The notes under the pieces are model-generated. The model worked only from the letters and a program-made list of their open reading frames with translations. It ran no database searches and was not told the DNA's origin. A program made the position numbers and the translations under genes. 64,000 nt of DNA from an uncultured bacterium (GTDB lineage: Bacteria > Patescibacteriota > Minisyncoccia > UBA6257 > GWB1-50-10), in assembly GCA_963768835.1 (NCBI GenBank), contig CAVYJB010000002.1:208223-272222 (forward strand), read 5' to 3'. This document shows, one piece after another, positions 21,209 to 64,000 of the stretch (its first letter is position 1; every line of letters starts with the position of its first letter).

Positions 21209-21212
21209 CGTT

Positions 21213-22718: not shown

Positions 22719-22741
22719 GATGGGTTAGAGATGAAAAATCT

Positions 22742-23911: not shown

Positions 23912-23913
23912 AC

Positions 23914-34492: not shown

Positions 34493-34503
34493 CCCCCGCT
34501 CAT

Positions 34504-47199: not shown

Positions 47200-47231
47200 T
47201 GTCCCTACAATGATGCCATACGAAAATTCGT

Positions 47232-47771
47232 ATGCGCAAACTGCTTTGGTCGTTCATCGAAGTCGTCGAAACCATCATTATCGCCGTGGTGGCGGTATTT
47301 CTCGTCCGTTCCTTCGTGGCGCAGCCCTTCCTCGTGAGCGGTTCCAGCATGGAGCCAAACTTCCAGAACGGAGATTATCTCCTGATCGACGAGCTGTCAT
47401 ATCGCTTCCGGCCGCCGGAGCGGGGCGAGGTTATTGTTTTCAGATATCCCGGGGACCACAAATCCTTTTACATCAAGCGGGTCATCGGGCTCCCCGGCGA
47501 ACGGGTGGTGGTCAACAACGACCAGGTGGCGGTCTACGACAGCGGTGCCCAGAAGGTTCTTGATGAACCCTATCTCGATGGTAATCGCACCACGGGCTCC
47601 ACAGACACAACACTCGGGCCCGGACAGTATTTTGTGATGGGCGACAACCGACCTTTCAGTTCCGACTCGAGGAGCTGGGGTCCTGTCTCAACCAGCGATC
47701 TTGTGGGGCTCGTCCGTTTCCGCCTTTGGCCGGTGAACCGTGCGATGGCATTCACCGCCCCCGCCTACTAG
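47232..47771 (+). CDS. lepB: Signal peptidase I
   Basis: 'VSGSSMEPNF' contains the catalytic Ser box (SM/EPT). 'GDYLLIDELSY' and 'IKRVIGLPGE' are Lys-box regions. Confidence 0.75.
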   Translation: MRKLLWSFIEVVETIIIAVVAVFLVRSFVAQPFLVSGSSMEPNFQNGDYLLIDELSYRFRPPERGEVIVFRYPGDHKSFYIKRVIGLPGERVVVNNDQVAVYDSGAQKVLDEPYLDGNRTTGSTDTTLGPGQYFVMGDNRPFSSDSRSWGPVSTSDLVGLVRFRLWPVNRAMAFTAPAY

Positions 47772-47821
47772 CAGAGCTACCCCTCCCATCAACTCAGCGA
47801 TCCTCTGGGATCCACTATCCT

Positions 47822-49138
47822 ATGCCTACCCCACAACCCTCCAAAAACTCTAAAAAATCTAAACCGCCCACCCTCATTCTTCCCGCCACGGTGCGCGGGA
47901 TGTCCGACATCCTTCCGAAAGATGAGATGTGGTGGAAAGCGGTGACGCAAGCGGGGACGAACGTGGCAGAGCTCCACGATTTCCACCTCATCGAAACTCC
48001 CATCCTCGAGTCCGCGGATCTCTTTGAGCGTGGGGTGGGGGATACTACCGACATCGTGGAAAAGCAGATGTATACCTTCCGGACCCGCGGAGATGACCGT
48101 GTTGCCCTTAGGCCTGAAGGTACCGCCTCCGTGATGCGCAGCTATTTAGAGCACCACCTCGGATACTTCGCGTCGCCGCTTAAGGTGTACTATGTCGGTC
48201 CGATGTTCCGCTATGAGAGACCCCAAGCGGGGCGCGAGCGACAGTTCCACCAGTGGGGCTTCGAGGTCATCGGGGACGGGGACCCGCTTTATGATGCGGA
48301 GGTTATTATGGCGACGATGGATCTTTTGGGTGCGCTCCGGCTCAAAAACCTAATCCTGAAAATTAATAGCATTGGATGCCGCGTGTGCCGGGGAAATTAT
48401 CGAGAGAAGCTCAAATCCTATTATGGTGGTCACCGCTCGAAGCTTTGCAAAGACTGTGAGCGTCGCCTCGAGCGGAACCCGCTCCGGCTTCTCGATTGCA
48501 CGGAACCGGACTGCGTGGCGCTACGGAAGGATGCGCCCATTATCCTTGACTACCTATGCCAAAACTGTAACAATCACCTGAAGACCGTGCTGGAAATCAT
48601 GGAGGATCAGGGGATCGTCTATGAGCCAGATCCTTACCTTGTTCGCGGCCTCGACTACTACAATCGTACGGTCTTTGAGGTATGGAGCCCTTCGTTCGGA
48701 TCGGCGCTCGGCGGCGGCGGCCGCTACGACTACCTTTCTGAAATCCTGAGCGGTCGCTCCGTGCCGGCCGTCGGGGTTGCGCTGGGGATTGAACGGATCA
48801 TTGAAACATTGAAAGCTCTGGAGATACCGCCGTACGTGAAGACGCGTCCTCGAATCTTCTTCGCCGCGGTGGGAGAGCAGGCGCGTAAGGCTGCCATGAA
48901 ACTGATCGGCGAACTACGGCGCAGCGGGATCCCCGTCGTGGAAGCGATTGGAAAGAAATCTCTCAAGGCGCAGCTGAAATCCGCGGACAAGATGGAGGCT
49001 CCTCTCGCGATCCTTCTCGGTCAAAAAGAAGTATTTGAAGGAAGCGTCATTCTCCGGGATATGCGGAGCGGTGCCCAAGAAACCGTCGTAGTGGCGAAAC
49101 TCACCGAAGAGGTGAAGCGGCGCCTGAAGGCTGTCTGA
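47822..49138 (+). CDS. hisS: Histidine--tRNA ligase
   Basis: Class II aaRS motifs: 'KVYYVGPMFRYERPQAGRERQFHQ' (motif 2) and 'GGGRYDYL' (motif 3 region). Start taken at the Met of MPTPQ. Confidence 0.8.
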   Translation: MPTPQPSKNSKKSKPPTLILPATVRGMSDILPKDEMWWKAVTQAGTNVAELHDFHLIETPILESADLFERGVGDTTDIVEKQMYTFRTRGDDRVALRPEGTASVMRSYLEHHLGYFASPLKVYYVGPMFRYERPQAGRERQFHQWGFEVIGDGDPLYDAEVIMATMDLLGALRLKNLILKINSIGCRVCRGNYREKLKSYYGGHRSKLCKDCERRLERNPLRLLDCTEPDCVALRKDAPIILDYLCQNCNNHLKTVLEIMEDQGIVYEPDPYLVRGLDYYNRTVFEVWSPSFGSALGGGGRYDYLSEILSGRSVPAVGVALGIERIIETLKALEIPPYVKTRPRIFFAAVGEQARKAAMKLIGELRRSGIPVVEAIGKKSLKAQLKSADKMEAPLAILLGQKEVFEGSVILRDMRSGAQETVVVAKLTEEVKRRLKAV

Positions 49139-49153
49139 CGGATTCCTCCGCGC

Positions 49154-49579
49154 ATGCCTACCTCGAAAGAGTGCCTCTTCTGTCGAATCATCCGGAAGGA
49201 GATTCCGGCCCAGATCATCTATGAGGATGCGGCGACGATGGCAGTTCTCGATGTGAACCCCCGCGCGCCGGGCCACACGATGATCCTCCCTCGCGATCAC
49301 GTGAACTCGATCTTGGAGCTCGACGACCAGCACCTAGGCCCCACCTTCCATACCGTGAAGCGGATTGTGAAAGCTCTCAAAGCCACGTTCGCGCCGGACG
49401 GCTTCACGATCGGCATCAACCACGGGCGGGCGGCGGGGCAGGCGATTGATCATCTCCATATTCATGTCATCCCGCGGTGGAGTACGGACGGAGGTGGCTC
49501 CATCCACTCCGTTGTTTCGAATCCGCCTCAGGAGTCCCTTGCTGTGCTCCGGTCGAAGATCGTCGAACACTTAACCTAA
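49154..49579 (+). CDS. HIT-family protein (histidine triad nucleotide-binding)
   Basis: 'HLHIHVIPR' is the histidine triad motif. Confidence 0.75.
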   Translation: MPTSKECLFCRIIRKEIPAQIIYEDAATMAVLDVNPRAPGHTMILPRDHVNSILELDDQHLGPTFHTVKRIVKALKATFAPDGFTIGINHGRAAGQAIDHLHIHVIPRWSTDGGGSIHSVVSNPPQESLAVLRSKIVEHLT

Positions 49580-49597
49580 CCAAATAATTTAATCGCA

Positions 49598-49813
49598 ATG
49601 GCTATTGAGATACGCAAGCGAGAGGGAGAGACCACGGGGTCGTTCCTCTACCGTTTCAACAAGAAGGTCCAACACAGCGGCCTTATTAAGGAAGTGCGGA
49701 AGCGCCAGTTCCGCGGCCGCACCGCGAACCAGCGGAAGCGTCGGCTCTCGGCGCTCTATCGCCTGGGCCGCCAACAGGATCTCACGCGTGCTCGGAAGTA
49801 CGGCAATGCCTAA
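49598..49813 (+). CDS. rpsU: 30S ribosomal protein bS21
   Basis: Short basic protein. 'FLYRFNKKVQHSGLIKEVRKRQFRGRTANQRKR' has the pattern of S21 '..ALRRFKR...G...E.RRR.FYEKP...RKR'. Confidence 0.55.
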   Translation: MAIEIRKREGETTGSFLYRFNKKVQHSGLIKEVRKRQFRGRTANQRKRRLSALYRLGRQQDLTRARKYGNA

Positions 49814-50297
49814 ACCGCTCAAGGAAGCGACGGAACCAACGCTTGCGCGACGCATCGACGCTGACACGGTCGCGGCTCTAAAGAGTGGCGACGCGGTGCG
49901 GGTCGGGACTCTTCGACTGCTTCGGACCGTTCTCCACAACCGCGAAATCGAAAAGCATGGGAAGGGGGACGACGCTCCGCTTTCGGATGCCGAGGTTCTG
50001 GATCTTATCGGGCGGGAAATTAAGAAGCGACGCGAAGCTATCGAGCTTTATGGAAAGGCGGGACGCACTGAATTGGTGACGAAGGAACAGGGTGAGCTCA
50101 AGATTCTCGAGGTGTATCTTCCTCCGCAGATGGGGGAGGCGGAGGTTCGGAACGCGGTCGAGGCGGCGGTCCTCGAGACGGGAGCCGCGGGACCCAAGGA
50201 TTTTGGGCGCGCCATGGGAGTCCTTGCGGGGCGCTTGAAAGGAAAAACGGATGCCACGCTGATCGCGCGGATCTTGAAAAATCGGCTCGGGGGGTAA
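49806..50297 (+). CDS. GatB/YqeY-domain protein
   Basis: The rpsU-yqeY adjacency is conserved in many bacteria. The sequence 'ALKSGDAVRVGTLRLL...EVYLPPQMGEAEV...GAAGPKDFGRAMG' fits the YqeY family. Confidence 0.55.
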   Translation: MPKPLKEATEPTLARRIDADTVAALKSGDAVRVGTLRLLRTVLHNREIEKHGKGDDAPLSDAEVLDLIGREIKKRREAIELYGKAGRTELVTKEQGELKILEVYLPPQMGEAEVRNAVEAAVLETGAAGPKDFGRAMGVLAGRLKGKTDATLIARILKNRLGG

Positions 50298-50300
50298 GGC

Positions 50301-50741
50301 ATGAACCGTATTATTCTGGAAGTTTCAGATAAGCGATGGGGGTCCGTCGAGAAGGCCGTTTGTGCGGCGCTCCGGCGGGCCCTTCTTCTTTTAAAGGAGT
50401 CGGGGGTCGCTCTCGAGGTCCACCTCGTAACCGATGCCGAGATGAAAAAGCTCTCGGGGGCCTACCACGGTCGTCGGGCGCCCGTGAATGTTCTAAGTTT
50501 CCCCGCCCATGCGTTCCCACATCCGACGGTGGGGCGCCGGACGCGCTATCTCGGAGAGATCTATGTGGCGCCGCAGTATGCGCGCGCGCACCATTTTGAC
50601 CCTCGCTTCCTCGTGGTGCACGGTCTCCTACATCTCCTGGGGTATACGCACCAGGGCGCTCGTGATACTATAAAAATGGAACAGCTCGAGGACCGTCTCT
50701 TGGCACGCTCCGAGCGGAAATCGGGTCCCTCTTTTGCATGA
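50301..50741 (+). CDS. ybeY: rRNA maturation endoribonuclease YbeY
   Basis: 'HGLLHLLGYTH' is the H-x-x-x-H-x-x-G-Y-x-H zinc-binding motif of YbeY. Confidence 0.75.
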   Translation: MNRIILEVSDKRWGSVEKAVCAALRRALLLLKESGVALEVHLVTDAEMKKLSGAYHGRRAPVNVLSFPAHAFPHPTVGRRTRYLGEIYVAPQYARAHHFDPRFLVVHGLLHLLGYTHQGARDTIKMEQLEDRLLARSERKSGPSFA

Positions 50742-51946
50742 TCACCAGTCTCGACATCGGTTCATCGCATATTAAAGGCATCGTCGCAGAGACGAGGAAA
50801 GGCGGCGGGCTCGGCGTGCTCGCGGCTTTCAAACATCCGTCCGCCGGCATCCGAAAAGGAACGATCGTGGATGTGGAAGAGGCGGGAGCGGTCCTCCGTG
50901 ATCTTGTGTTGGACCTCCAAAAACTTTCCAAGCACGCGACGCAGAATATTTTCGTGAATCTCCAGAGCGAGCACGTGCGCTCGCGTATATCTCAAGGCAT
51001 GGTAGCCGTCGCCCGCGCGGATCAAGAGATCCAATCGGACGACATCGACCGCGTGATGGACGCATCGCGCGCCGTGAAGCTGCCGTCGAATTACATGGTG
51101 CTTCACAATGTCACCCGGGAATACTACGTGGACGACATCGGGGACATCTCCGATCCCCTCGGTATGAGCGGAAACCGCCTAGGCGTGAGCACGCTCATCG
51201 TCGAAGCTTTCGCGCCGCAGTTCACCCAGCTCACCAAGCTTCTCGAACGCGTCGGAGCTCGGGTCGGCGGAGTGGTCTTCGGCCCGCTCGCGTCCTCGCG
51301 CGCCGTTCTTACGAAACGTCTCCGGGATCTCGGGGTTCTCATGATTGACCTCGGGTTCGGGACCACCTCTATCGCAATCTACGAGGAGAATAAGCCCTTA
51401 CACACGAAGTGTATCCCTATCGGATCGGGCCACGTGACGAACGACATCGCGATTGGCCTCAAGACCTCGATTGACGCGGCCGAGAAGCTGAAGACGACCT
51501 ACGGGTGTGCGGTGGCCAAAGATATCTCCCGCAAGGAATCCCTCCGGCTCGCGGAAGTAGACCCCTCGCTACCAGGAGAAGTCTCGCGCCGACTCCTCGC
51601 CGAGATTATCGAGGTGCGTCTTGCGGAAATTCTGGACCTCGTGGATAATGAGCTCAAATCGTTGGGGCGGAGCGTCCAACTGCCCGGCGGTGTGATCCTG
51701 ACCGGCGGGGGAGTGAAGCTGCCCGGCATGGTGGAGCTGGTGAGAAGCGAGATGAAGCTCCCGGTGCAGATCGGTTTCCCGAACCTCGGAGGGCTCGAGG
51801 TTACAAATCCCACCCACGAAGAGCTCCTCGACGATCCGGAGTTCGCGACCGCGGTGGGGCTCATCCTCTCGGCGGAAGAGCATGACCGGAAGGCGCCGCG
51901 GACTGCAGGCGGTATCCGAACCTTCTTCAAAAACTTTATTCCCTAG
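50738..51946 (+). CDS. ftsA: Cell division protein FtsA
   Basis: 'ITSLDIGSSHIKGIVAE' is the actin-fold phosphate-1 motif at the N-terminus. It is positioned immediately upstream of ftsZ. Confidence 0.8.
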   Translation: MITSLDIGSSHIKGIVAETRKGGGLGVLAAFKHPSAGIRKGTIVDVEEAGAVLRDLVLDLQKLSKHATQNIFVNLQSEHVRSRISQGMVAVARADQEIQSDDIDRVMDASRAVKLPSNYMVLHNVTREYYVDDIGDISDPLGMSGNRLGVSTLIVEAFAPQFTQLTKLLERVGARVGGVVFGPLASSRAVLTKRLRDLGVLMIDLGFGTTSIAIYEENKPLHTKCIPIGSGHVTNDIAIGLKTSIDAAEKLKTTYGCAVAKDISRKESLRLAEVDPSLPGEVSRRLLAEIIEVRLAEILDLVDNELKSLGRSVQLPGGVILTGGGVKLPGMVELVRSEMKLPVQIGFPNLGGLEVTNPTHEELLDDPEFATAVGLILSAEEHDRKAPRTAGGIRTFFKNFIP

Positions 51947-51952
51947 ATTTCC

Positions 51953-53158
51953 ATGAAACGAGTCAGAAAAAATTTAAAAGCGCAGCTTGCGGGTCCCGCG
52001 AGGGCGACTCCGAAGCGTCTCTTGGCGCGCATCAAAGTGGTGGGTGTCGGCGGTGGTGGCAGTAACGCGGTGACGCGAATGATGGAAGGCGACCGCATCA
52101 AAGGTGTGGAGTTTATCGCGATCAACACCGACGCCCAGGATCTTGATTACGCCGCGGCGCATCGGAAGATTTATATCGGGAAAGCCCTGACACACGGGCT
52201 CGGCACCGGCATGAACCCGGAGCTCGGGAAGCAGGCCGCGGAGGAGAACCGCTCCGAGATTGGAGAAGCGGTGGAAGGAGCCGACATCGTCTTCGTAACA
52301 GTCGGGCTGGGTGGCGGGACCGGTTCGGGTGCGGGCCCCATCGTAGCCGAGATCGCCCGTGAAAAGGGCATTCTCACCATCGGCATCGTCACGAAGCCGT
52401 TCGCGTTCGAAGGTACTCAGCGCGCGACCATCGCGCAGGACGCAGTGAACCGACTGAAAGATAAGGTGGACGCGCTCGTCGTTATCCCGAACGACCGGAT
52501 CTTCAGTCTTATTAGCAAGGATACGCCCCTCGTGCGCGCGTTCGGTTTTATCGACGATGTCCTGAAGAACGGCGTGCAAGCCATCGCGGAGCTTATCAAC
52601 GTGCCCGGCATCATCAACGTGGATTTTGCGGACATTCGGACGACTCTCAAGGACGCCGGCTCGACCCTTATCGGCATCGGAATAGCCTCGGGCGGGGATC
52701 GGAGCGTCAAGGCGGTGGACCAAGCCATCAACTCACCCCTTCTCGAAGTTTCTATTGAAGGAGCGAAAGGAGTGCTCTTTTCCATCGCAGGAGGACGAGA
52801 CCTCAAAATGTCCGAAATCCATGATATCGCAAAGACAATTGCCGGGAATCTTGACCCGGCTGCCCGGGTTATCTTCGGCGCGTACCACGACCGGAGCCTG
52901 CGGGATAAAAGCATTAAAGTCACGGTTATCGCGACCGGTTTCAATGGAGTGCTTCGGGAAAAACTCTCGACCTTACCCTCCCTCTTTGTGGATGAAGGTT
53001 TCCCGGGGAAGCGGGAGGTAGGGAAATCCCCCATGCCCCCCCGGAACGAAGAGGAACGGGAGAGGGAGAAGGAGAAAGGCGAGAAATCGGACGCTCCCAA
53101 GGTTTCGAAGGCTGACCAGTGGGAAATTCCGGCCTTCATGCGGAAGAAGAAACGCTAA
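51953..53158 (+). CDS. ftsZ: Cell division protein FtsZ
   Basis: Tubulin signature 'GGGTGSGAGP', 'VGVGGGGSNAV', and a C-terminal basic tail ending 'IPAFMRKKKR'. Confidence 0.9.
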   Translation: MKRVRKNLKAQLAGPARATPKRLLARIKVVGVGGGGSNAVTRMMEGDRIKGVEFIAINTDAQDLDYAAAHRKIYIGKALTHGLGTGMNPELGKQAAEENRSEIGEAVEGADIVFVTVGLGGGTGSGAGPIVAEIAREKGILTIGIVTKPFAFEGTQRATIAQDAVNRLKDKVDALVVIPNDRIFSLISKDTPLVRAFGFIDDVLKNGVQAIAELINVPGIINVDFADIRTTLKDAGSTLIGIGIASGGDRSVKAVDQAINSPLLEVSIEGAKGVLFSIAGGRDLKMSEIHDIAKTIAGNLDPAARVIFGAYHDRSLRDKSIKVTVIATGFNGVLREKLSTLPSLFVDEGFPGKREVGKSPMPPRNEEEREREKEKGEKSDAPKVSKADQWEIPAFMRKKKR

Positions 53159-53173
53159 GAGATTCTCTCTAGA

Positions 53174-53196
53174 GACCGCCTGCGGGCGGTTTTTTG
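53174..53196 (+). terminator. Probable rho-independent terminator after ftsZ
   Basis: Short hairpin gaccgcc-tgcg-ggcggt followed by ttttt. Confidence 0.4.
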
Positions 53197-53423
53197 TCGG
53201 GAAGGAAGCCGGATCCTCTCGGGCCCCACCCCTTTTGCTCAGAAATTTGACCGACTTCGGTCAGGACCCACCGTATACCCTTTCCGAGGTTCCGTGTCTT
53301 GACGGCGGAGCTCCTTTCCGTCGTTTTCAAAAATGGGGAGAGTTATCCACACCTCGTAAATGGAAAAAGCGTGACCTAGAATGTCTGAGTCGTTCTGAGC
53401 ACCAAACTATTTTCAAAAGTCCC

Positions 53424-55664
53424 ATGCCATTCAAGTCGGTACGGAAGCGAGACGGGAGTATTGTTTCTTTCGATGCGTCGCGGATCACGGCAGCTATCCT
53501 CAAGGCCATGCTCGTCACGAAAGAAGGCGCTGAGGAGGAGGCAAAAAAGATCGCGGAGAAGGTTGTGAAAGAGCTCTCAACGCTGTACCGGTCGGACCAC
53601 ATACTTGGCATTGAGGAAATCCAGGATACCGTGGAGCGGGAACTTATTCTTGCGGATTACGCGGGCACCGCGAAAGCTTACATTCTCTACCGGCAAGAAC
53701 GCTCGCGGCTTCGAGAGCAACGCCGACAGATTCCCGAGCGCGTGAAGCAGCTCGCGGAGGAGAGTAAGCGATATTTTCGAAACGCGCTCGGCGAGTTTGT
53801 CTACTACCGTTCGTACTCGCGCTGGATCGAAGAAGAAGGACGGCGCGAGACCTGGATCGAAACCGTGGACCGCTACATCGCGTTCATGCGCGAGAAGCTT
53901 GGCACGAAACTCACTGACGACGAGTACGCCGAAGCGCGCGTCGCGATCCTCCGACAGGAGACGATGCCCTCAATGCGGCTTCTCTGGAGTGCGGGGGAGG
54001 CAGCACGCAAGACGAATGTCTCGGCTTACAACTGTTCCTTCATCGCGCCGACGAAGCCTCGTGATTTCGCGGAGATTATGTACCTCTCGATGTGCGGTAC
54101 GGGCGTCGGGTTTTCTGTAGAACAGCAGACGGTTCAGATGCTCCCACAGATTTCACGACAAACCGGCGAACGACTGCCGACGCACGTGGTCGGTGACAGC
54201 AAGGAGGGCTGGGCCGACGCGCTTACCCTCGGTCTCACCTCGTGGTTTGAAGGAAAGGATATTGATTTTGATTTCTCGCAGCTTCGTCCGCAAGGTGCGC
54301 GCCTCAAAACGATGGGTGGCAAGAGCTCAGGCCCCGAGCCGCTCCGCGCCGTCCTTGATTTTTCGCGACGCAAGATTCTTGCGAAACAGGGTCGGCGCCT
54401 CACGCCGATTGACGTGCACGATATCGTTTGCAAGGTTGGCGAGGTCGTGGTGATGGGAGGTGTGCGGCGCACTGCGCTCATCTCGCTCTCGGATCTCGAC
54501 GACCCCGAGATGCGTTTCGCGAAGACCGGGCAGTTCTATCTCACAGAGCCCCAGCGCGCCATGGCGAACAACTCCGCGGTCTATCTTGAGAAGCCTCCGG
54601 CGAGCGTCTTCCTCGACGAGTGGATCGCACTCGCGAAGAGTGGGACGGGGGAACGGGGCATCTTCAACCGCGGAGGTCTCCGCACGCAGATACCCGCGCG
54701 CCGCTGGGATCTTATCAAAGACCGCGCTGCCACGACTGGGACGAATCCGTGCGGAGAGATCAACCTGCTTTCAAAGGAGTTCTGCAACCTCACGGAGGTG
54801 GTGGCGCGCGCCGAGGATACTGAGGAGGATTTGATGAAGAAAATGCGGGTTGCGACCATCCTAGGGACCTACCAATCCACCCTCACTCAGTTCCCATATC
54901 TTTCGAAGGAATGGACGGAAAACTGTGAACAGGAGCGGCTTCTCGGGGTTTCCATCACCGGCCAGTGGGATTGCCCTGCGCTCCGTGACCCTGGGGTGCT
55001 CCGCCGGCTGCGTGACCACGCGCTTGAGGTGAATCGCACATATGCGAAGCGCTTTGGTATCAATGCGTCAGCAGCTATTACGTGCGTGAAACCATCCGGA
55101 ACTGTCTCGCAGCTTGTCGATGCCGCCTCTGGTCTCCACCCGCGGCACGCTCCGTACTACATCCGCCGTATCCGTGTCGCGGCGTCGGACGGTCTCTTCC
55201 AGATGTTGCGTGACCAGAAGGTGCCATACTACCCCGAGGTGGGACAGTACGTGGGGAACGCCTCGACCTATGTTTTCGAGTTCCCTGTGAAAGCGCCGGA
55301 AGGTTCCACGTTTAAGAACGACATCTCCGCAATCGAGCAGCTTGAGTGGTGGCGGATGGTGAAGGAAAACTACACCGAGCATAACCCGTCGGTGACCATC
55401 TCAGTGGGGGAGAATGAATGGATCGAGGTCGCAAATTGGCTCTACCATCACTGGGATATTCTGGGCGGCCTCTCCTTCCTTCCGCGCGAAGACCATGTCT
55501 ATGCACTAGCCCCCTATGAAGAGATTACTGAGGAGCGTTATCGCGAGATGGTCGCGAGTCTCCCGGACGTGGACTTCTCTCAGATCCTTCTCTACGAAAA
55601 GATGGACGAGACGCAAGGTGCGAAGGAGCTCGCCTGCGTGGGCGGGGTCTGCGAGATACAGTAG
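53424..55664 (+). CDS. Ribonucleotide reductase with N-terminal ATP-cone, probably class II (adenosylcobalamin-dependent, NrdJ-like)
   Basis: ATP-cone N-terminus 'VRKRDGSIVSFDASRITAAILKAM'. Catalytic region 'NPCGEINLLSKEFCNLTEV' has the thiyl-radical Cys loop. No separate small-subunit gene is adjacent, and the length of about 750 aa fits monomeric class II. Start taken at the Met of MPFKS (53424) rather than the longer track ORF. Confidence 0.65.
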   Translation: MPFKSVRKRDGSIVSFDASRITAAILKAMLVTKEGAEEEAKKIAEKVVKELSTLYRSDHILGIEEIQDTVERELILADYAGTAKAYILYRQERSRLREQRRQIPERVKQLAEESKRYFRNALGEFVYYRSYSRWIEEEGRRETWIETVDRYIAFMREKLGTKLTDDEYAEARVAILRQETMPSMRLLWSAGEAARKTNVSAYNCSFIAPTKPRDFAEIMYLSMCGTGVGFSVEQQTVQMLPQISRQTGERLPTHVVGDSKEGWADALTLGLTSWFEGKDIDFDFSQLRPQGARLKTMGGKSSGPEPLRAVLDFSRRKILAKQGRRLTPIDVHDIVCKVGEVVVMGGVRRTALISLSDLDDPEMRFAKTGQFYLTEPQRAMANNSAVYLEKPPASVFLDEWIALAKSGTGERGIFNRGGLRTQIPARRWDLIKDRAATTGTNPCGEINLLSKEFCNLTEVVARAEDTEEDLMKKMRVATILGTYQSTLTQFPYLSKEWTENCEQERLLGVSITGQWDCPALRDPGVLRRLRDHALEVNRTYAKRFGINASAAITCVKPSGTVSQLVDAASGLHPRHAPYYIRRIRVAASDGLFQMLRDQKVPYYPEVGQYVGNASTYVFEFPVKAPEGSTFKNDISAIEQLEWWRMVKENYTEHNPSVTISVGENEWIEVANWLYHHWDILGGLSFLPREDHVYALAPYEEITEERYREMVASLPDVDFSQILLYEKMDETQGAKELACVGGVCEIQ

Positions 55665-55704
55665 CGACTAGGAGAGAACGACTCCCGATAAAATAAGGAC
55701 AAGA

Positions 55705-55730
55705 AAGCCCGTCGCGAGACGGGCCTTTCG
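55705..55730. terminator. Bidirectional hairpin terminator between the RNR gene (+) and tRNA-Lys (-)
   Basis: gcccgtc-gcga-gacgggc hairpin, flanked by a short T tract on the + strand (ctttcg) and, on the - strand, by gctttctt. Confidence 0.5.
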
Positions 55731-55739
55731 TTAACGTTG

Positions 55740-55812
55740 TCCCCCCACTAGGAATCGAACCTAGAACCTTCTCCTTAAAAGGGAGCTGCTCTACCAATTG
55801 AGCTATGGGGGG
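55740..55812 (-). tRNA. tRNA-Lys (anticodon UUU)
   Basis: The reverse complement folds as a canonical 73-nt cloverleaf. D-arm TAGCTCAATTGGTAGAGC. Anticodon loop CTTTTAA with a GCTCC/GGAGA stem. Variable loop AGGTT. T-arm CTAGG-TTCGATT-CCTAG. Acceptor CCCCCCA/TGGGGGG with discriminator A. CCA is not encoded. It resembles E. coli tRNA-Lys except for the C1:G72 acceptor. Confidence 0.7.
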
Positions 55813-55935: not shown

Positions 55936-58900
55936 ATGAAGAAGTTTTCCATTCTCCTGTTCGTGTGCGCGGTAGTCGTCGGTTCGGTAGGAGCGGCAAC
56001 GGTTCTGCCGCCGGTCGAGGTACATGCGGCGTCCCAGTGGTACGTATCCCCGAACGGAAGTTCGGGAGGCAGCGGCTCGCAGTCGAGTCCGTGGGATCTC
56101 CAGACGGCGCTGAACGGCGGTCCGTCCGGACAAGTGCAGCCCGGCGACACCGTCTGGCTCTTGGGTGGGACGTACAACGGCACGTACACCGTGAACATCT
56201 CGGGAAGCTCCGGCAACTACATCACCATCCGTAACTGGAACGGCCAGCGAGCGACCATCAACCAGAACATGTGGAACAACCAGAGCGCCATCCTCAGCGT
56301 GAACGGGTCGTACCTGCAGATTTGGGGGCTCGAGATTGAGAGCACCGCTCCAACCAATAATCCTTGGATGAGTGACGGCATCGGTTTCTCGCCCAACGTG
56401 ACCGAGACCGACGACCGCATCATCAACTGCGTCGTTCACGATGCCGGGGGCATCGGCATCTCGAACCTCAACGGAGTCGAGCGCACGGAAGTGAACGGCA
56501 CGCTCATGTACTACAACGGGCGCAGCCCCATCAGCGACCAAAACGGGAACGGGGCGTACGGGACGTATACGCAGAACGTCGGCTCGAACGGGCAGAAACT
56601 CTATCAGGATAACTTCGTCTTCTCGAACTGGTACTACGGAGCCCATGTCTACACACAGGATTCGAGCATCGACAACTTCAAATTCGACGGGAACACGATG
56701 TTCAACAACGCGTGGTTTCGGAGCTGGCGCGGGGGGCAACAGACAATAACTCCCGGCACCTACGACGCCAACTTCATTCTGGGCGGCGTGACGGCACATA
56801 ACCTCGTTTTCACGAACAACTATATGTATTTCCCCGGAGCATCCACTGTATCCATCCCTACCGATGATGTTGGGCGGGAGACCATTGGGTTCAACGGCAC
56901 CGTGCCGCCGTCTCCGGACATTGAAGGCAACTATTTTATCCGCGGGAAGATCAACGTCAGCATGTCGACTCCCGTATTCAAGAACAATCACTTCTACGAT
57001 AATGTCTCTTTTGGTGATGCGGGGGGGACGCTCGCGAGTGGCTACGACACAGCGGACGGGAACACCTACAGCACTCCGCCGAATACGGTTATCGTCCGGA
57101 AGAATAAGTACGAGACAGGGCGGGCGAACATCATTGCCTACAACTTCAATCTGAGCCCGACAGTCACGGCGGATGTCTCGAGCGTGCTCCAACCCGGCGA
57201 TAGCTATGTTGTAAAGGATGTGCAGGACTTCTATGGAACGACGGTCGCGGCAGGTACTTACACCGGCGGCTCGATTACGATTCCGATGGACCCGGCGCAC
57301 CACACTATTTCGACCGCTGTGGACCAGCCTATTGCACCAGTCCAATCCGCCCCCGAGTTCGCGGCGATGGTGCTCATGCGAACCTCCGGCGGCGGGGGAG
57401 GTAGCACTCCCTCCCTTTCTATTTCCCCCTCTTCTCTCTCCTTCTCTGCCCAACAAAACGGCTCAACACCGGCAGCTCAATCGGTTTCCCTCTCGAACAC
57501 GGGTGGAGGTACGCTCCCTTCGTGGGGCGCCTCAGGAAATCAGTCTTGGCTTTCTGTAAGTCCCTCCTCGGGTTCGGGGAATGGGAGCATTTCCGTTTCC
57601 GCGAACCCCTCAAGCCTCGCTGCGGGGACGTACGCCGGTACCGTGACCGTTACCGCGTCAGGCGCCTCGGGGAGTCCTCAGAATATCTCAGTCTCTTTCA
57701 CTATCTCGGGTGGCGGAGGTGACACCACTTCGCCCACTGTCTCCCTCACGGCTCCCGCGGCGAACGCGACCCTCACCGGCACCGCAACTCTCTCTGCGTC
57801 CGCCGCCGACAATGTGGGAGTCACGAAAGTGGAGTTTTATGTGGACGGTTCTCTTCTCTCGACCGACACCTCTTCCCCGTACGCCGCGTCCTGGAACACG
57901 GCCAATGTTTCGAACGGCTCTCACGCTCTCCAAGCTAAAGCGTATGACGCGGCAGGGAACGTGGGCACCTCGGCAGCGGTTGGCGTTACCGTCTCCAACG
58001 TCACGACCGATACCACCGCCCCCACCATCACCCCGACCGCGCCTGCCGTGGGAGCGACCCTCTCTGGAGTCGCGACCCTCTCCGCCACGGCCTCCGACCC
58101 CGATGATGCGGTCTCCTCCCTCTCCTTCTATGTGGACGGCTCCCTCCTCTCGACCGACACCACGAGTCCCTATACCGCCTCCTGGGATACCACCAGTGTT
58201 TCGAACGGTTCTCACACCATCTCCGAGAAAGCCTGTGACACCCACAGCAACTGTGCGACGACGCAGGGCTATACGGTCACAGTTTCGAATGGCGGAGGAG
58301 GTGGCGGTGGTGGAAGCGGCGTCTTCTCCCTCGGCGATACGGTCCGCGTGGTTCTCACGACAGATTGTGTGAACGCCCGCGACAGCGCCTCCCTCTCTTC
58401 GAACATCTACAAATGTGAGGTGGCGGGTACCCAAGGCACGGTCCTCGCGGGTCCCACTCCCGATTCTGCCTCCGGCTACACCTTCTGGAAGATCGCGTAT
58501 ACCGATGGCGTGACGGGATGGTCGGCCGACAAGTACCTTGAGAAAGTGAGTGGTGGCGGAGGCGGAGGAGGTGGCGGTGGTGGAAGCGGCGTCTTCTCCC
58601 TCGGCGATACGGTCCGCGTGGTTCTCACGACAGATTGTGTGAACGCCCGCGACAGCGCCTCCCTCTCTTCGAACATCTACAAATGTGAGGTGGCGGGTAC
58701 CCAAGGCACGGTCCTCGCGGGTCCCACTCCCGATTCTGCCTCCGGCTACACCTTCTGGAAGATCGCGTATACCGATGGCGTGACGGGATGGTCGGCCGAC
58801 AAGTACCTTGAGAAAGTGAGTGGGAGCAGTGCTCTTCCTGTCCTTTCAGCCTCTCCCTCCTCCCTCTCATTCTCCGCTTCGCAGGGCGGCAACGCTCCCG

Positions 58901-61176
58901 CTCCGCAATCGATCGGTGTCTCCAACGCAGGTGGCGGCACGCTCTCCTGGAGCGCGACCGGCAACGCCACCTGGTTCTCCGTTGCTCCCTCCTCGGGCAC
59001 GAACGGAGGCTCTATTGCGGTGAGCATGAGCCCCGCGGGTCTCGCCGCAGGCACGTACACGGGCGCCGTCACCGTCGCGGGCGCGGGCTCGGCGGGGAAC
59101 AAGTCCATCCCAGTCTCCCTTGTTGTTGTGGGGGGCAACTGCAATCCTAATGCCAACCCTGGCGCCACTATCCCTCCCCCTTCTGGTTCTTCCCCCTCCC
59201 TCTCCGTCTACCAGGACTCGGTCCTTCCCCCCTGGCAGAAAGCCTCCTTCCGTGGCGTCTACACGTACAATTCCACGGCGCAGGTCCACTCCGGTTCCGC
59301 CTCCATCAAGGCAGTCTCCCAGCCCACAGGCTCCGTGAGCCTCCAGTCCTGGACCTCTCCTCAATCGATCTCCGGCTACACCACCTTCCAGTTCTGGGTG
59401 TACCCCACGACCCCTATCACGCTTCACACCACCCTCCAGGGTCCCTCCGGTGTCTACGGAGCCCCCGCCTCTGGCACGCTCCCCGCGAACCAGTGGAGTC
59501 AAATCACGATTCCTCTCGCGAACTACAAGCTCCCTGCAGGCTTCCAGCTCACCCGCATCTATATCGGGGGCATCGGCACCGCCACCACCTGGTATCTCGA
59601 TGACGTGGGGTTTGGGGGTGGGGGAGGAACCCCGGCCGCCAACACCTCCGGCGCTTCCAACCCTTCTTCCTGTGATACCACTCCGCCCACCGTCTCCCTC
59701 ACGGCTCCCGCGACAAACGCGACTGTCTCTGGCACCGTCTCTCTTACTGCCTCCGCCTCTGACAATGTGGGCGTCACCTCCGTCTCCTTCTATGTGGACG
59801 GCTCTCTCCTCTCGACCGACACCTCCTCCCCCTATATAGTATCCTGGGATACCACTAGTGCCTCGAACGGCTCCCACACGCTCACCGCCAAGGCTTATGA
59901 CGCGGCCAACAATGTGGGCACTTCGGCGTCCGTTACCATCACGGTTTCGAATGCTGTGGTGGCACCACCAAGCTCTCCCGTGTCCTCCTACGGTCCCGGT
60001 ATCGGTGCCGACTCCCTGAACAACCACCAAATCTCGAGCATTGACGTCGATTACCGCTTCCGTGCCGCAGTAACCGGCGCCGTGAAAAATATCATTTGGT
60101 ACGACATCTTCACGCCGGGCACTAGCGATTCGGGATATAGCAACGGAACGGGCGGGAGCGTCAGAATCTGCTTGCAGACCGATGATGGCACTGCCAGCCA
60201 CTTGGCGTCCGGCACCAACCTTGCTTGCGTCGATGACCTCGCGCCTAAGACCGGCTTCTTCCCGGTTGAAACCTTTTCCACGCCGCCGACCCTGACGGCG
60301 GGGCAGCTCTACCACATCCACTGGCACAATTTGGACCCGTCGCCCGACGCCAACCACGTCTCGGTGGATGGTATATTCGTCTGGGATGCCACGACGCCGC
60401 GACAACCGACCTACTCTGACACCGATCTCGCGGTTTTCCGCGGCACAACACTCCAACCTCGCGATACGCCCATCTTTCAAGCGACCTACACCAATGGCAC
60501 CGTGCAGGGCGTTGGCTACATGGAGTTCTGGGTGGCCACTGCGCCTGCGGTGTCCGGTGCGAACCAAGTACGCGAGCAATTCACCGTGACCGGCGGTGAC
60601 AAGGTCGTGTCGAGCCTTTCGCTCCGCATGATGCGGGACAGCACAAGCGCCGGCACGAGCCCGCTCACGGTCACGCTCGAAACCGTAGCGGGGACCATCA
60701 TCGAACGTGGCACCATTCCTGCCGTCACTTTCCCCCTCGGAACAACCAATGACACAGCAAGCAACCACAACGCGTGGGGGACCCTCACGTTCTCGACTCC
60801 GCATACGCTGACTTCCGGTCAAACTTATCAGTTCGTTCTCTCGGCTCCGGCGGACACCACATATCGGGTGCAGCCGATGGAACGCGGGAATAACTACAGC
60901 TTCATTGCGCCGACGTTCTTCGGGGACGGCTTCGGGCAATTCTCGGCCGATGGCGGCACCACCTGGTCGGGTTTCAACCAGCCCGGCGGCCGCACGAACA
61001 ACAACAACGCCGATGTGCAGTTCTATTTCAGTCTTGGGACGGTTGTTGCGGCTTGGTACAAACCGACGGCGACATCTCCGGCGATCGGCAAGGCAACCTC
61101 GCTGTCTCAGGTAACGGATGATTATTTCGGCAGCACGAGGGGAGCACCGCCCGATATGGGAGCAGTGAACCACTAA
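55936..61176 (+). CDS. Giant secreted multidomain surface protein: signal peptide, right-handed beta-helix (pectate-lyase-like) region, BACON-like domains, Ig-like (Big) repeats, two tandem SH3b-like modules with poly-Gly linkers, and a C-terminal beta-rich region
   Basis: Signal peptide 'MKKFSILLFVCAVVVGSVGAATV'. Asn/Gly-rich repeats periodic in 'NG..Y' suggest a beta-helix. 'PSLSISPSSLSFSA...GTYAGTVTVTASG' is BACON-like. 'TSPTVSLTAPAANATLTGTATLSASAADNVGVTKVEFYVDGSLLSTDTSSPY' are Ig-like repeats (4 or more). 'GDTVRVVLTTDCVNAR...GYTFWKIAYTDGVTGWSADKYLEKV' is SH3b-like. The long antisense ORFs here are GC artefacts. Confidence 0.7.
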   Translation: MKKFSILLFVCAVVVGSVGAATVLPPVEVHAASQWYVSPNGSSGGSGSQSSPWDLQTALNGGPSGQVQPGDTVWLLGGTYNGTYTVNISGSSGNYITIRNWNGQRATINQNMWNNQSAILSVNGSYLQIWGLEIESTAPTNNPWMSDGIGFSPNVTETDDRIINCVVHDAGGIGISNLNGVERTEVNGTLMYYNGRSPISDQNGNGAYGTYTQNVGSNGQKLYQDNFVFSNWYYGAHVYTQDSSIDNFKFDGNTMFNNAWFRSWRGGQQTITPGTYDANFILGGVTAHNLVFTNNYMYFPGASTVSIPTDDVGRETIGFNGTVPPSPDIEGNYFIRGKINVSMSTPVFKNNHFYDNVSFGDAGGTLASGYDTADGNTYSTPPNTVIVRKNKYETGRANIIAYNFNLSPTVTADVSSVLQPGDSYVVKDVQDFYGTTVAAGTYTGGSITIPMDPAHHTISTAVDQPIAPVQSAPEFAAMVLMRTSGGGGGSTPSLSISPSSLSFSAQQNGSTPAAQSVSLSNTGGGTLPSWGASGNQSWLSVSPSSGSGNGSISVSANPSSLAAGTYAGTVTVTASGASGSPQNISVSFTISGGGGDTTSPTVSLTAPAANATLTGTATLSASAADNVGVTKVEFYVDGSLLSTDTSSPYAASWNTANVSNGSHALQAKAYDAAGNVGTSAAVGVTVSNVTTDTTAPTITPTAPAVGATLSGVATLSATASDPDDAVSSLSFYVDGSLLSTDTTSPYTASWDTTSVSNGSHTISEKACDTHSNCATTQGYTVTVSNGGGGGGGGSGVFSLGDTVRVVLTTDCVNARDSASLSSNIYKCEVAGTQGTVLAGPTPDSASGYTFWKIAYTDGVTGWSADKYLEKVSGGGGGGGGGGGSGVFSLGDTVRVVLTTDCVNARDSASLSSNIYKCEVAGTQGTVLAGPTPDSASGYTFWKIAYTDGVTGWSADKYLEKVSGSSALPVLSASPSSLSFSASQGGNAPAPQSIGVSNAGGGTLSWSATGNATWFSVAPSSGTNGGSIAVSMSPAGLAAGTYTGAVTVAGAGSAGNKSIPVSLVVVGGNCNPNANPGATIPPPSGSSPSLSVYQDSVLPPWQKASFRGVYTYNSTAQVHSGSASIKAVSQPTGSVSLQSWTSPQSISGYTTFQFWVYPTTPITLHTTLQGPSGVYGAPASGTLPANQWSQITIPLANYKLPAGFQLTRIYIGGIGTATTWYLDDVGFGGGGGTPAANTSGASNPSSCDTTPPTVSLTAPATNATVSGTVSLTASASDNVGVTSVSFYVDGSLLSTDTSSPYIVSWDTTSASNGSHTLTAKAYDAANNVGTSASVTITVSNAVVAPPSSPVSSYGPGIGADSLNNHQISSIDVDYRFRAAVTGAVKNIIWYDIFTPGTSDSGYSNGTGGSVRICLQTDDGTASHLASGTNLACVDDLAPKTGFFPVETFSTPPTLTAGQLYHIHWHNLDPSPDANHVSVDGIFVWDATTPRQPTYSDTDLAVFRGTTLQPRDTPIFQATYTNGTVQGVGYMEFWVATAPAVSGANQVREQFTVTGGDKVVSSLSLRMMRDSTSAGTSPLTVTLETVAGTIIERGTIPAVTFPLGTTNDTASNHNAWGTLTFSTPHTLTSGQTYQFVLSAPADTTYRVQPMERGNNYSFIAPTFFGDGFGQFSADGGTTWSGFNQPGGRTNNNNADVQFYFSLGTVVAAWYKPTATSPAIGKATSLSQVTDDYFGSTRGAPPDMGAVNH
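58291..58823 (+). repeat. Perfect tandem direct duplication (2 x about 263 bp, 270-bp register) inside the giant protein gene, encoding an SH3b-like module plus poly-Gly linker
   Basis: 58291-58553 and 58561-58823 are identical base for base by visual alignment (ggcggaggaggtggcggtggtggaagcggcgtcttctccc ... aagtaccttgagaaagtgagtgg). The copies are separated by 7 bp of Gly-codon run. Confidence 0.9.
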
Positions 61177-61215: not shown

Positions 61216-61250
61216 AAGTCCGCCCTTCGAGGGCGGACTTTCTGTTATTT
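61216..61250 (+). terminator. Rho-independent terminator after the giant protein gene
   Basis: aagtccgccc / gggcggactt hairpin with ttcga loop, then tctgttattt. It is followed by TTGTCA ... TGGTATAAT promoter-like elements upstream of the next gene. Confidence 0.55.
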
Positions 61251-61333: not shown

Positions 61334-64000
61334 ATGCTTTATTCTTCTCCGTCGGTTCTTGGTCGATCGTCCCTTTGGCGCGTCGCCCTCTTCGGGGCGC
61401 TTGCTGTTTTTATACTAGTCGCCATGCCGCACCACGCGGCCGCGCAGACGAGTTCCGGGTTCTTCAACACGGTCTACTACGATAGCAGCAATGAAGAAGC
61501 TTTCGGCATGCAGTGGGGCGGCGTCGATACCGGTGTGCCGCCCGAGGACGTCGACTGGCAAAACCTCCACTTCACAGATGTCATCCAGTTCAACGGGAAC
61601 GACACCGTGCAGTCGGGCGCGCCCTACTCCAACGTGTACGTGACGAACGGTACCCCGTCGTCTATGGCAAACGTGCTCGTGTACGGTCCGAACTGCGACC
61701 CGACGACGCAGACGTGCCGTGATTATCTGCATGGCAGCAATGGTCTTATCACGCTCGCGCATGCGGCGGGGGCTCGTGTCATCTACAACATTCAGGCGGT
61801 TGATGGTTCGGCGCTTGGCAGCATCACGAGCGGGTCCAACGCCGCGGCGACGACCCAGACTTTTGTGAACTCGCTCATGACCTTTGTCACCGCAGAAGGA
61901 TATGATGGCGTTGAGATCGACTGGGAGTCGTACGATCCGACCGTGGCGCAGACCTCGCTTCTCACGAACACGCTCCGTACGGCGCTCGATGCCTCGGGCT
62001 CCGCGTTCAACGGGACGCGCAAAATGATCATCTGGGCCGCGGGCGGCGGGCAGGCAGACTTGTTCGACTCCTCACTCGACTCGAAAGTCGATCAGTACGA
62101 TCCGCAGTTCTATGGACTCTATGATTCGTCGCTGAACACGGGTACTCCTCCGTGGTATGTTGTGCCCCTTCACAACTCCTCGAATCCCAACTGCGTCAGC
62201 CAGAACACGCGGTCGCTCGACGGCGTCGGCGGGTCTCCGGAGGTGAGCGCCCTCTGGTGGGCGAGGTTGCACGACCCGAAGAAGATCGGCATCGGTCTTG
62301 CCTCGGCGGCGACCATCTTTGTGGGTTCGAACCAGCTCTGTGCGGGGAATGTGACCTCGATGCACTACGGGCACTATCAGCATGGGCTCAGTCTGGCCTC
62401 GAATGGGGGGACGGTCGGGTATGACACCCAGACCCAGAATGCGTATATCTCCGGGACGGCGATATCGACTCTTGCCGCGGATGACCAAGGTCTTGGGGTC
62501 GGCGCGAACCAGCCATTCTTCCTCTCTTACGAGAACGCCCAGAGCATTCAGGCAAAAGTGACGTGGGCAAAAGCGAACGGGCTCGGGGGAATTATGATGT
62601 TCGAGCTCCGCGATGATCTTGACTCCACGAAACCGAGCGGTGGGGGCAGGTTCCCGGTCGAGGAAGCGGTCGCGGCAGCCCTCGGCGGAAGCACTGGGGG
62701 TGGTGGTGACACCACGCCCCCCACCGTCTCCCTCACCGCCCCTTCAGGTGGGGCCACAGTCTCGGGTACCGTAACGGTCTCTGCTACCGCCTCCGATAAC
62801 GTGGGAGTCACACAGGTCAGCTTCTACGACGGTTCGACGCTCATCGGCAGCGATTCCTCCTCCCCCTACTCGGTTTCTTGGAATACCAGCGGTCTTTCTG
62901 GGACTCAGGTCCTTACCGCCAAGGCCTATGATGCGGCAGGGAACGTGGGTACCTCCGCCTCGGTCAGTGTGACGGTGTCGAGCGGTGGCGGCGGCGACAC
63001 CACGCCCCCCACCGTCACCCTCGCGAACCCCGGGAGCACCCTCTCCGGCACCATCTCCCTCTCCGCTACCGCCTCCGACAACGTGGGCGTCACGAAGGTG
63101 GAGTTCTATGTGGACGGCACGCTCCTCACCTCCGACACCACGAGCCCCTACACCGCAAGCTGGAACACGACCAATGTCTCGAACGGCTCCCACACCCTCC
63201 AGGCCAAGGCCTATGACGCGGCAGGGAACGTGGGAACCTCCGCCTCGGTCAGTGTGACGGTCTTGAACACGGCGGTTGACATCACTCCTCCCTCCGTCAC
63301 CCTGAACGGACCCCAGAATGGTACCTCGGTCTCCGGCTCCGTCTCCCTCTCCGCCACCGCCTCGGATGTCGATGACGCGGTCTCTGCGGTCACCTTCTAC
63401 GACGGCACGACTGTCATCTCAATCGACACCACCTCCCCGTACCAGGCCATCTGGAACACCACCTCCCTCGTGAACGGCAGCAGTCACACCCTCACGGCCA
63501 AGGCCTGCGATACCCACAAAAATTGTGCGACCACCCCAGGGATCACAGTCATGGTGAACAACACGGTCGTGAGCACCCCTCCCTCCATCTCCCTTACGGC
63601 TCCTGCCAATAACACCACTGTCCAGGGCACCGTGACCCTCTCCGCCTCCGCCTCGGCGAACGTGTCGGGCGCCACCATCGCAAGCGTCCAGTTCTACGTG
63701 GACGGCACCTCCATCGGCACGGACACCACCTCCCCCTACAGCATTTCCTGGAACACCTCCGGACTCTCTGCAGGATCCTCCCACACCTTGACCGCCAAGG
63801 CGACGGACTCCGCGGGCAACACCGCGACCTCTCAGCCGGTCACGGTTGCCCTTGCTAACGTAAACCCAGGTGCCGTGACAGTCGCGATCACGGCGCCTTC
63901 CGCGGGCTCGATCGTGAGTTGCTCCACAGGCGTTACCGCGACCGCCACAGGAGGCTCTATCACGGGAGTTCAGTTCCGGGTGGACAACCAGAACCTCGGT
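61334..64000 (+). CDS. Secreted glycoside hydrolase family 18 (chitinase-like) protein with five or more C-terminal Ig-like repeats; 3' end beyond the window. Not in the ORF track because no stop codon lies in the window
   Basis: Hand translation from ATG 61334 gives an uninterrupted ORF to the window end. Signal peptide 'MLYSSPSVLGRSSLWRVALFGALAVFILVAMPHHAAAQT'. GH18 catalytic motif 'GYDGVEIDWES' (DGxDxDWE). Repeats 'DTTPPTVSLTAPSGGATVSGTVTVSATASDNVGVTQVSFYDGS...' are homologous to the Ig-like repeats of the 55936..61176 protein. Confidence 0.65.
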   Translation, partial: MLYSSPSVLGRSSLWRVALFGALAVFILVAMPHHAAAQTSSGFFNTVYYDSSNEEAFGMQWGGVDTGVPPEDVDWQNLHFTDVIQFNGNDTVQSGAPYSNVYVTNGTPSSMANVLVYGPNCDPTTQTCRDYLHGSNGLITLAHAAGARVIYNIQAVDGSALGSITSGSNAAATTQTFVNSLMTFVTAEGYDGVEIDWESYDPTVAQTSLLTNTLRTALDASGSAFNGTRKMIIWAAGGGQADLFDSSLDSKVDQYDPQFYGLYDSSLNTGTPPWYVVPLHNSSNPNCVSQNTRSLDGVGGSPEVSALWWARLHDPKKIGIGLASAATIFVGSNQLCAGNVTSMHYGHYQHGLSLASNGGTVGYDTQTQNAYISGTAISTLAADDQGLGVGANQPFFLSYENAQSIQAKVTWAKANGLGGIMMFELRDDLDSTKPSGGGRFPVEEAVAAALGGSTGGGGDTTPPTVSLTAPSGGATVSGTVTVSATASDNVGVTQVSFYDGSTLIGSDSSSPYSVSWNTSGLSGTQVLTAKAYDAAGNVGTSASVSVTVSSGGGGDTTPPTVTLANPGSTLSGTISLSATASDNVGVTKVEFYVDGTLLTSDTTSPYTASWNTTNVSNGSHTLQAKAYDAAGNVGTSASVSVTVLNTAVDITPPSVTLNGPQNGTSVSGSVSLSATASDVDDAVSAVTFYDGTTVISIDTTSPYQAIWNTTSLVNGSSHTLTAKACDTHKNCATTPGITVMVNNTVVSTPPSISLTAPANNTTVQGTVTLSASASANVSGATIASVQFYVDGTSIGTDTTSPYSISWNTSGLSAGSSHTLTAKATDSAGNTATSQPVTVALANVNPGAVTVAITAPSAGSIVSCSTGVTATATGGSITGVQFRVDNQNLG

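Follow-up and report, generated by a model that had tools for sequence, protein, structure and literature searches.

The window analysed here is a stretch of 64,000 nucleotides (nt) of contig CAVYJB010000002.1 (assembly GCA_963768835.1), read on its forward strand. It contains a gene coding for a secreted multi-domain protein of 1746 amino acids (aa), hereafter P0001 after the database protein to which it is identical. In the middle of this gene, a segment made of a poly-glycine linker and an SH3b module occurs twice in tandem, and the two copies do not differ at a single base. The features of the locus are listed in Table 1.

Table 1. Features of the repeat gene and its surroundings, numbered from the first base of the window
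Feature	Position	Strand	Basis and remarks
tRNA-Lys(UUU)	55739..55812	-	Immediately upstream of the repeat gene
Coding sequence, 1746-aa secreted multi-domain protein	55936..61176 (stop included)	+	List of open reading frames; identical to database protein P0001 (100% over 100% of the length)
Predicted signal peptide, MKKFSILLFVCAVVVGSVGAATVLPPVEVHA	55936..56028	+	Inspection of the translation: KK n-region, hydrophobic core, VHA-like c-region
N-terminal domain (~450 aa), candidate right-handed beta-helix	56029..57387	+	Weak: PL6 lyase, E=0.07; relatives with PF13229
BACON_2 no. 1, aa 494-582	57415..57681	+	Pfam PF19190, E=1.5e-13
Two Big_7 Ig-like domains (limits approximate)	57719..58290	+	Pfam Big_7, E=2e-58, 3 stretches in the protein; DNA repeat families
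Repeat copy 1	58291..58553	+	263 nt: linker 1 (Gly8) and SH3b module, plus the opening 2 nt of the Gly codon that follows
Linker 1, Gly8	58291..58314	+	24 nt, GGC GGA GGA GGT GGC GGT GGT GGA
SH3b module copy 1, aa 794-872 (79 aa, SGVFSLGD...YLEKVS)	58315..58551	+	Match to the family hidden Markov model (HMM) at 58318-58548, i-E 1.2e-33; AlphaFold2 (AF2) pLDDT 96.2; best Foldseek matches SH3b
Junction linker, Gly11	58552..58584	+	AGT GGT GGC GGA, then the same 24 nt as linker 1
Non-repeated 7 nt of the 270-nt period, TGGCGGA	58554-58560	+	Outside the identity tract; within the region of the 6-nt doublet GGCGGA GGCGGA
Repeat copy 2	58561..58823	+	263 nt, 100% identical to copy 1
SH3b module copy 2, aa 884-962	58585..58821	+	Family HMM match at 58588-58818, i-E 1.2e-33
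BACON_2 no. 2 (limits approximate)	58828..59115	+	Pfam: 2 BACON_2 stretches; motif SPSSLSFSA...GTYTG recurs
Beta-rich module, aa 1081-1229	59176..59622	+	Matches the C-terminus of P0002 at 88-96% identity; Gly5 linker at its end
Big_7 no. 3	59672..59951	+	Pfam; DNA repeat families
C-terminal domain (~400 aa)	59950..61173	+	Weak DUF4082 match, E=9.7e-5, below the Pfam cutoff
Strong intrinsic-terminator-like hairpin, 11-bp stem and T tail	61216..61250	+	Downstream of the repeat gene

Identification of the tandem repeat

Three repeat scans gave the same result. Tandem Repeats Finder reported a single array at 58291-58823, with a period of 270, 2.0 copies, 100% matches, 0 indels and a score of 1066; this array was the sole tandem repeat that it detected between 50 and 64 kb. 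A repeat search delimited the two copies of 263 nt, at a spacing of 270 and with 100% identity, and a scan of the sequence against itself at a lag of 270 yielded one unbroken identity run of 263 nt. The period of 270 nt corresponds to 90 codons, and the repeat is in frame within the 1746-aa open reading frame (ORF). Chance is no issue for an identity of 263 out of 263, and the absence of any difference over this length places the 95% upper bound on the pairwise divergence at about 3/263, or 1.1%. The Big_7 domains served as an internal control. Within the same gene their repeats reach a DNA identity of only 67-79% and, when those of the repeat gene and of the next gene are taken together, one of 64-79%, save for one 64-nt stretch at 94% that two Big_7 modules of the downstream gene share (62918-62981 and 63203-63266). 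Because the other module repeats reach only 64-79%, the SH3b pair is exceptional within its own gene in the identity of its copies. The original prediction, made by reading the letters alone, had described a base-perfect 263-bp tandem duplication in a 270-bp register, in frame and inside a giant surface gene. The identity, the register and the frame are those found by the scans, and the gene does code for a large secreted multi-domain protein, as judged from its predicted signal peptide and its Pfam domains.

The array is preceded by an Asn codon (AAT), its entry flank ending in ...TTTCGAATGGCGGAGGAGG, and it is followed by AGT GGG AGC AGT (Ser-Gly-Ser-Ser), the sequence on the exit side being ...GAGAAAGTGAGTGGGAGCAGTGC. 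The junction of the two copies reads GAGAAAGTGAGTGGTGGCGGAGGCGGAGGAGG, also given as GAGAAAGTGAGTGGTGGCGGAGGCGGAGGAGGTGGC, and its 36-mer occurs once in the window. The two linkers are the longest poly-Gly runs of the window. The earlier description of both copies as flanked by long Gly runs holds only in part: Gly8 lies inside the repeated unit, and just one Gly codon comes after copy 2. The runs had also been regarded as prone to slippage, but their mixed synonymous codons make for weakly repetitive DNA that is only mildly so. Pure poly-Gly linkers are rare among SH3b modules of the same family (4 out of 209 linkers). Shorter runs of Gly4 to Gly5 are found at several module boundaries of both secreted-protein genes of the window (57388-57402, 57709-57720, 59614-59628, 62696-62707 and 62984-62995), and such linkers appear to be typical of these two genes.

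A tandem duplication in one step does not account for the present sequence. Such an event predicts an identity run of at least 270 nt at lag 270, where 263 nt were found, and the junction contains 6 to 9 nucleotides of GGN sequence (the GGCGGA doublet) more than any one-step event acting on the present flanks would leave. Because of this shortened identity run and of the extra GGN nucleotides, at least one further indel occurred.

Assignment of the repeated module to the SH3b fold

Neither Pfam nor NCBIfam gave a significant call for the module, none being obtained at E<=0.01, and a word-indexed homologue search with its 79 aa returned no candidates. A profile of the module was more informative. 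Compared with 1.84 billion representative proteins, it retrieved 1189 proteins at E<=1e-3, mostly with 2 to 8 tandem copies each. Within this family, 33 of the 52 aligned instances match Pfam SH3_3 (best E=1e-14) and 5 match SH3_4. The family profile also matches the solved SH3b domains 2kt8 (SH3b6 of CpAcp, an autolysin of Clostridium perfringens with ten SH3b domains), 2kyb, 4krt and 2kq8, with E-values of 7e-6 to 1e-4. An earlier PDB search using a profile of two sequences had returned only spurious matches to HIV protease and was replaced by the search with 52 sequences.

The AF2 model of the module computed from the alignment of 52 sequences has seven strands, a pLDDT of 96.2 and a pTM of 0.86. 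The double module modelled from its single sequence reached a pLDDT of 50.6 and was not usable. When the single-module model was compared with the PDB using Foldseek, the best matches were SH3b wall-binding domains, namely 4krt (endolysin Psm), 2kt8 (CpAcp), 4r0k and 3npf (NlpC/P60 DPP VI) and 8b2s, with TMq of 0.6-0.72 and a probability of 1.00; eukaryotic SH3 domains ranked after them. On the basis of its profile and of its predicted fold, we assign the module to the SH3b fold. The label that it had first received, a poly-Gly linker plus an SH3b module, is thus supported by the family profile, the AF2 model and Foldseek and not by a direct Pfam call. Elsewhere in the window, the family HMM detected no further SH3b module.

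From its alignment, the module belongs to a divergent SH3b subfamily with two conserved cysteines (TDC[VL]NAR...C). This motif is common to P0040, P0053, P0075, P0100, P0132, P0138, P0165 and other proteins. In P0001 the Cys codons lie at 58366-58368 and 58414-58416 (aa 811 and 827) and recur in copy 2, and a disulfide between them is possible.

A sister protein with its own identical pair

The only close relative found, P0002, is encoded by a different gene. This protein of 1118 aa has the layout ...AVV-G3-[AFTIGD...KLEKVSS]-G9-[AFTIGD...KLEKVSS]-GSAAPV. Its two modules are identical to each other over 82 aa, with a period of 87 aa, and 75% identical to the module of the window. Along the rest of the two proteins, the identity is patchy. 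It amounts to 100% over aa 1-60 (signal peptide and start of the N-terminal domain, window 55936-56115), to about 40% over the remainder of the N-terminal beta-helix domain, to 94% between Big_7 no. 2 of P0001 (aa 686-785, window 57991-58290) and a Big_7 of P0002 in an ungapped BLASTP comparison, and to 88-96% over the C-terminal module of P0002 (window 59176-59622). In a tblastn comparison of P0002 with the window, the latter region gave 90% over 59206-59607. Judged from these alignments, P0001 and P0002 are mosaics of each other, and the patchiness suggests that paralogous genes for secreted proteins have recently exchanged sequence by recombination or gene conversion. P0002 is probably a paralogue in the same genome; the collection holds no second FtsZ above 77% identity.

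Scans of genome contigs returned no confirmed relative, and a scan of metagenome contigs returned only distant modules of 55-59% identity. One metagenome match (L001) turned out to encode the S8 peptidase P0040, and its source is an unrelated organism of low G+C.

Among the 135 proteins of the family with several modules, 6 contain a pair of modules at least 95% identical, and such pairs are always adjacent. Since near-identical neighbours are found in these 6 of 135 proteins, young tandem duplication of the SH3b module recurs in the family while remaining the state of a minority. Identical or 96-99% identical adjacent modules are seen in P0042, P0115, P0120 and P0084, P0042 carrying a unit of 91 aa about three times.

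Duplication, assembly artefact or longer array

We consider it likely that a cassette consisting of a poly-Gly linker and an SH3b module has undergone a genuine and very young in-frame tandem duplication, to two copies or more, in the middle of the 1746-aa secreted, glycan-directed protein of a member of the Patescibacteria. An assembler could produce the same picture from a single-copy gene by a mis-join or by unrolling a strain bubble: the source is a metagenome-assembled genome and perfect identity is what such an artefact would give. Yet the junction sequence is unique in the window and is no pure loop, as it joins the end of a module to a Gly run longer than linker 1 (Gly11 versus Gly8). 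Moreover, the reading frame is kept through a further 2.3 kb of domain-encoding sequence, the site lies deep within a long contig, away from its ends, and the two-copy layout recurs in P0002 with another sequence and another period (87 aa). Because of the unique in-frame junction with its GGN indel and of the identical pair that P0002 has of its own, we regard a false duplication as very improbable.

The opposite error, by which the genome would hold at least three identical units and the assembly would show only the minimal two-copy path through the loop, deserves somewhat more credit and is still unlikely in our view. Reliable repeat numbers need long reads (PMC8201768). The unit of 270 nt exceeds typical short reads and k-mers, so that a perfect array of this kind is uncountable unless reads span it. 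Exactly two copies are found in both P0001 and P0002, as expected from such a collapse. The Logan k-mer assembly of run ERR11594402 also breaks just upstream of the gene and gives no full-length product. Its contig ERR11594402_380146 (L003) aligns with 46676-55795 of the window, 9120 bp, without a single mismatch, and the reads of this run therefore carry the population studied here; the contig ends inside tRNA-Lys, just before the repeat gene, and gives no independent view of the repeat. On the other hand, nothing speaks positively for a longer array, P0001 lies on a contig of 551,795 bp that may reflect long-read or well-resolved data, and most family members with identical pairs have few such copies. 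Of the two assembly errors that the original prediction had raised as alternatives to a recent duplication, expansion is thus very improbable in view of the junction and of P0002, and collapse keeps the small probability given above. In practice, the number of copies here, and at the corresponding place in P0002, should not be trusted unless reads span the array.

Origin and maintenance of the identical copies

In its simplest history, the array would have arisen in two steps. An illegitimate or unequal exchange at short G-rich microhomologies (TGG/GG) would first have duplicated 261-264 nt in frame; the unit begins with GGCGGA after a T and ends with AGTGG, which would provide the microhomology. 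An indel of 6-9 nt in the GGN run (the GGCGGA doublet) would then have lengthened the junction linker to Gly11. Perfect direct repeats are substrates for homologous unequal exchange. The 263-bp copies would now be open to this process, by which the copy number could move in frame between 1, 2, 3 and more in steps of 90 codons, and the same exchange would keep the copies identical. Tandem domain repeats that are highly identical in DNA recombine more readily within their gene and vary more in number (PMC8201768).

That the duplication was very recent, as first proposed, fits the zero differences over 263 nt, but homogenisation of an older pair fits them equally. In the latter scenario the pair predates the split of P0001 and P0002 and has been kept identical in each gene by frequent intragenic gene conversion or by rounds of contraction and re-expansion, possibly under selection for a pair of identical binding sites. 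We view this concerted evolution as possible, though we lean against it. The two proteins each have exactly two tandem copies at the same place, between the Big_7 array and the shared C-terminal module, and the 3' boundary of the unit, just after ...EKVS(S)G, is homologous in both. Their copies are identical within each protein and only 75% identical between proteins, and the other patches of 94-100% identity indicate that recombination acts on these genes. However, concerted evolution needs three events (one duplication and one homogenisation per gene) versus two for parallel duplications, and the G-run/GG microhomology offers a mechanistic reason for breakpoints to recur at the same place. 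Distant members of the Cys subfamily, furthermore, have single modules or non-adjacent, diverged ones (P0040 at 71%, P0053, P0075).

Several points weigh against the interpretation of the pair as a young duplication of a linker-SH3b cassette in a glycan-directed protein, or restrict what it covers. Parallel recent duplications and concerted evolution are equally economical when two genes and one DNA sequence are compared. The paralogy of P0002 is deduced, the absence of a close second FtsZ being among its bases. The copy number is fixed only as at least two, since a short-read graph assembler yields two copies for any array of two or more. Direct comparison of the module with Pfam SH3_3 (PF08239) gave E=0.68 and 10.6 bits for a cutoff of 27, with an alignment covering only the C-terminal 27 residues. 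Finally, Pfam and PDB searches and the translation identified no wall-anchor motif or catalytic domain with confidence.

If the young duplication is real and its copy number changes, the site would be one where a candidate phyla radiation (CPR) bacterium tunes the wall adhesion of a secreted glycan-directed protein, to its own wall or to that of a host; attachment is central to epibiotic life and poorly understood. The combination of identity within genes, divergence between genes and a mosaic of 94-100% patches is a small, clean case of paralogous surface proteins shaped by recombination in a bacterium of reduced genome, a phenomenon well known from other bacteria.

Protein architecture and genomic context

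In the 1746-aa protein, Pfam recognised three Big_7 and two BACON_2 domains. The N-terminal domain has no Pfam match, and its sole PDB sequence match is to the PL6 polysaccharide lyase of Table 1. Several full-length relatives, aligned over about 26% of the query, carry PF13229 Beta_helix. This domain is probably, if weakly supported, a beta-helix, a fold of glycan-active enzymes. No Pfam or PDB match was obtained for the beta-rich module, nor any PDB match for the C-terminal domain. By inspection of the translation, a signal peptide is present and neither an LPXTG-like motif nor a C-terminal hydrophobic segment is visible. We rejected an opposite-strand gene at the repeat, as the antisense ORFs have no family matches, and an RNA element, as Rfam finds tRNA only.

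Upstream of the repeat gene, the window encodes HisRS, YqeY, YbeY, FtsA, FtsZ, a class II ribonucleotide reductase and tRNA-Lys. The next gene downstream (61334-64000, + strand) runs off the end of the window; its product is secreted and combines a GH18 (chitinase-like) domain with at least five Big_7 domains behind it, Gly4 linkers marking module boundaries. At the other end of the window, a large ORF of 1110 aa (4-3336, + strand) has a single Pfam match, to the peptidoglycan-binding domain PG_binding_1 near its N-terminus; its product is the second large wall-associated protein in the window. The G+C content is 0.48-0.52 at 14001-24000 and 34001-36000 versus 0.54-0.63 in the rest of the window, and these low stretches may be islands of different origin or of a different gene class. 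The relatives of FtsZ bear the names Patescibacteria, Ca. Jorgensenbacteria or Paceibacterota, with only 77% identity for the best non-self match. Because of these names and of this value, the organism is, as far as FtsZ can tell, a CPR bacterium (Parcubacteria/Jorgensenbacteria-like) with no sequenced close relative.

Putative function and comparison with known systems

By analogy with their structural neighbours, the SH3b domains would be non-catalytic and bind peptidoglycan or some other polymer of the wall. A pair of such modules, identical and tethered by long, flexible Gly runs, would raise the valency of the protein and favour avidity, wall retention or target capture. In-frame change of the module number had originally been seen as a way to vary the length or reach of an adhesin. 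This idea is less well supported: Gly8 and Gly11 are flexible, and SH3_3 is itself an exception to the rule of rod-like arrays (PMC8201768). Because the tethers are flexible and the structural neighbours bind the wall, a role in valency, avidity or wall anchoring seems a more plausible guess than reach.

A bolder and rather improbable proposal is that the SH3b pair is an actively homogenised, selectable cassette. Within a small family of giant secreted paralogues, modules would pass from gene to gene and, inside a gene, be duplicated or collapsed at the poly-Gly joints, so that each paralogue has its own bivalent, sequence-distinct specificity while the flanks stay at 94-100%. If true, this would amount to recombination-based diversification of host- or wall-binding specificity in an episymbiont. 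Still more speculative is the idea that the poly-Gly tethers, being unusually long, act as intra- or intermolecular pseudo-ligands for SH3b domains that bind oligoglycine.

The Periscope proteins (SasG/Aap, Rib/alpha C, Esp, Sgo_0707) offer a first comparison. As in these proteins, whole folded domains are found in tandem, in frame and with near-100% DNA identity, from which recombination-driven change of the repeat number is expected (PMC8201768). The array of the window, with two copies at 263/263, is a minimal one of this kind. A tandem array of this type, with folded domains of high identity in a surface-type protein, is the Periscope hallmark, and SH3_3 repeats were among those surveyed (PMC8201768), so that the duplicated modules could be imagined as stalk spacers that set how far distal domains project from the cell. 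We find this quite unlikely. There are two copies only, and the Gly8 and Gly11 linkers are flexible, neither short nor rigid as in Periscope arrays. No C-terminal wall anchor of the LPXTG type was found in the translation, and the structural neighbours are ligand-binding, wall-targeting domains. SH3_3 and LysM are, within the same survey, exceptions among Periscope domains, with longer flexible linkers (PMC8201768). The host also differs, being an uncultivated CPR bacterium.

The SH3b domains of CpAcp (2kt8) and of the endolysin Psm (4krt) are closer, sharing the fold of the window module and a detectable profile homology with it. Wall hydrolases such as CpAcp are anchored and guided by tandem SH3b domains with flexible linkers between them (PMC8470621); P0001 resembles these proteins by its tandem modules, its disordered linkers and its nature of a secreted glycan-directed protein. 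The module of the window, in contrast, belongs to the divergent two-Cys subfamily, has a longer insertion containing GP and is not recognised by Pfam SH3_3. Its linkers are pure poly-Gly and its copies are base-identical rather than diverged. Nor does P0001 have a recognised peptidoglycan hydrolase domain; in its place stand beta-helix-like, BACON, Big_7 and unassigned modules.

Finally, the identity of 100% within and 75% between the genes of P0001 and P0002 recalls the concerted evolution of tandem repeats, with the difference that parallel recent duplication explains this pattern equally well. Surface or secreted proteins with identical domains in tandem are known, as are tandem SH3b arrays that bind the wall, and the modest twist here is a sister protein with an identical pair of its own.

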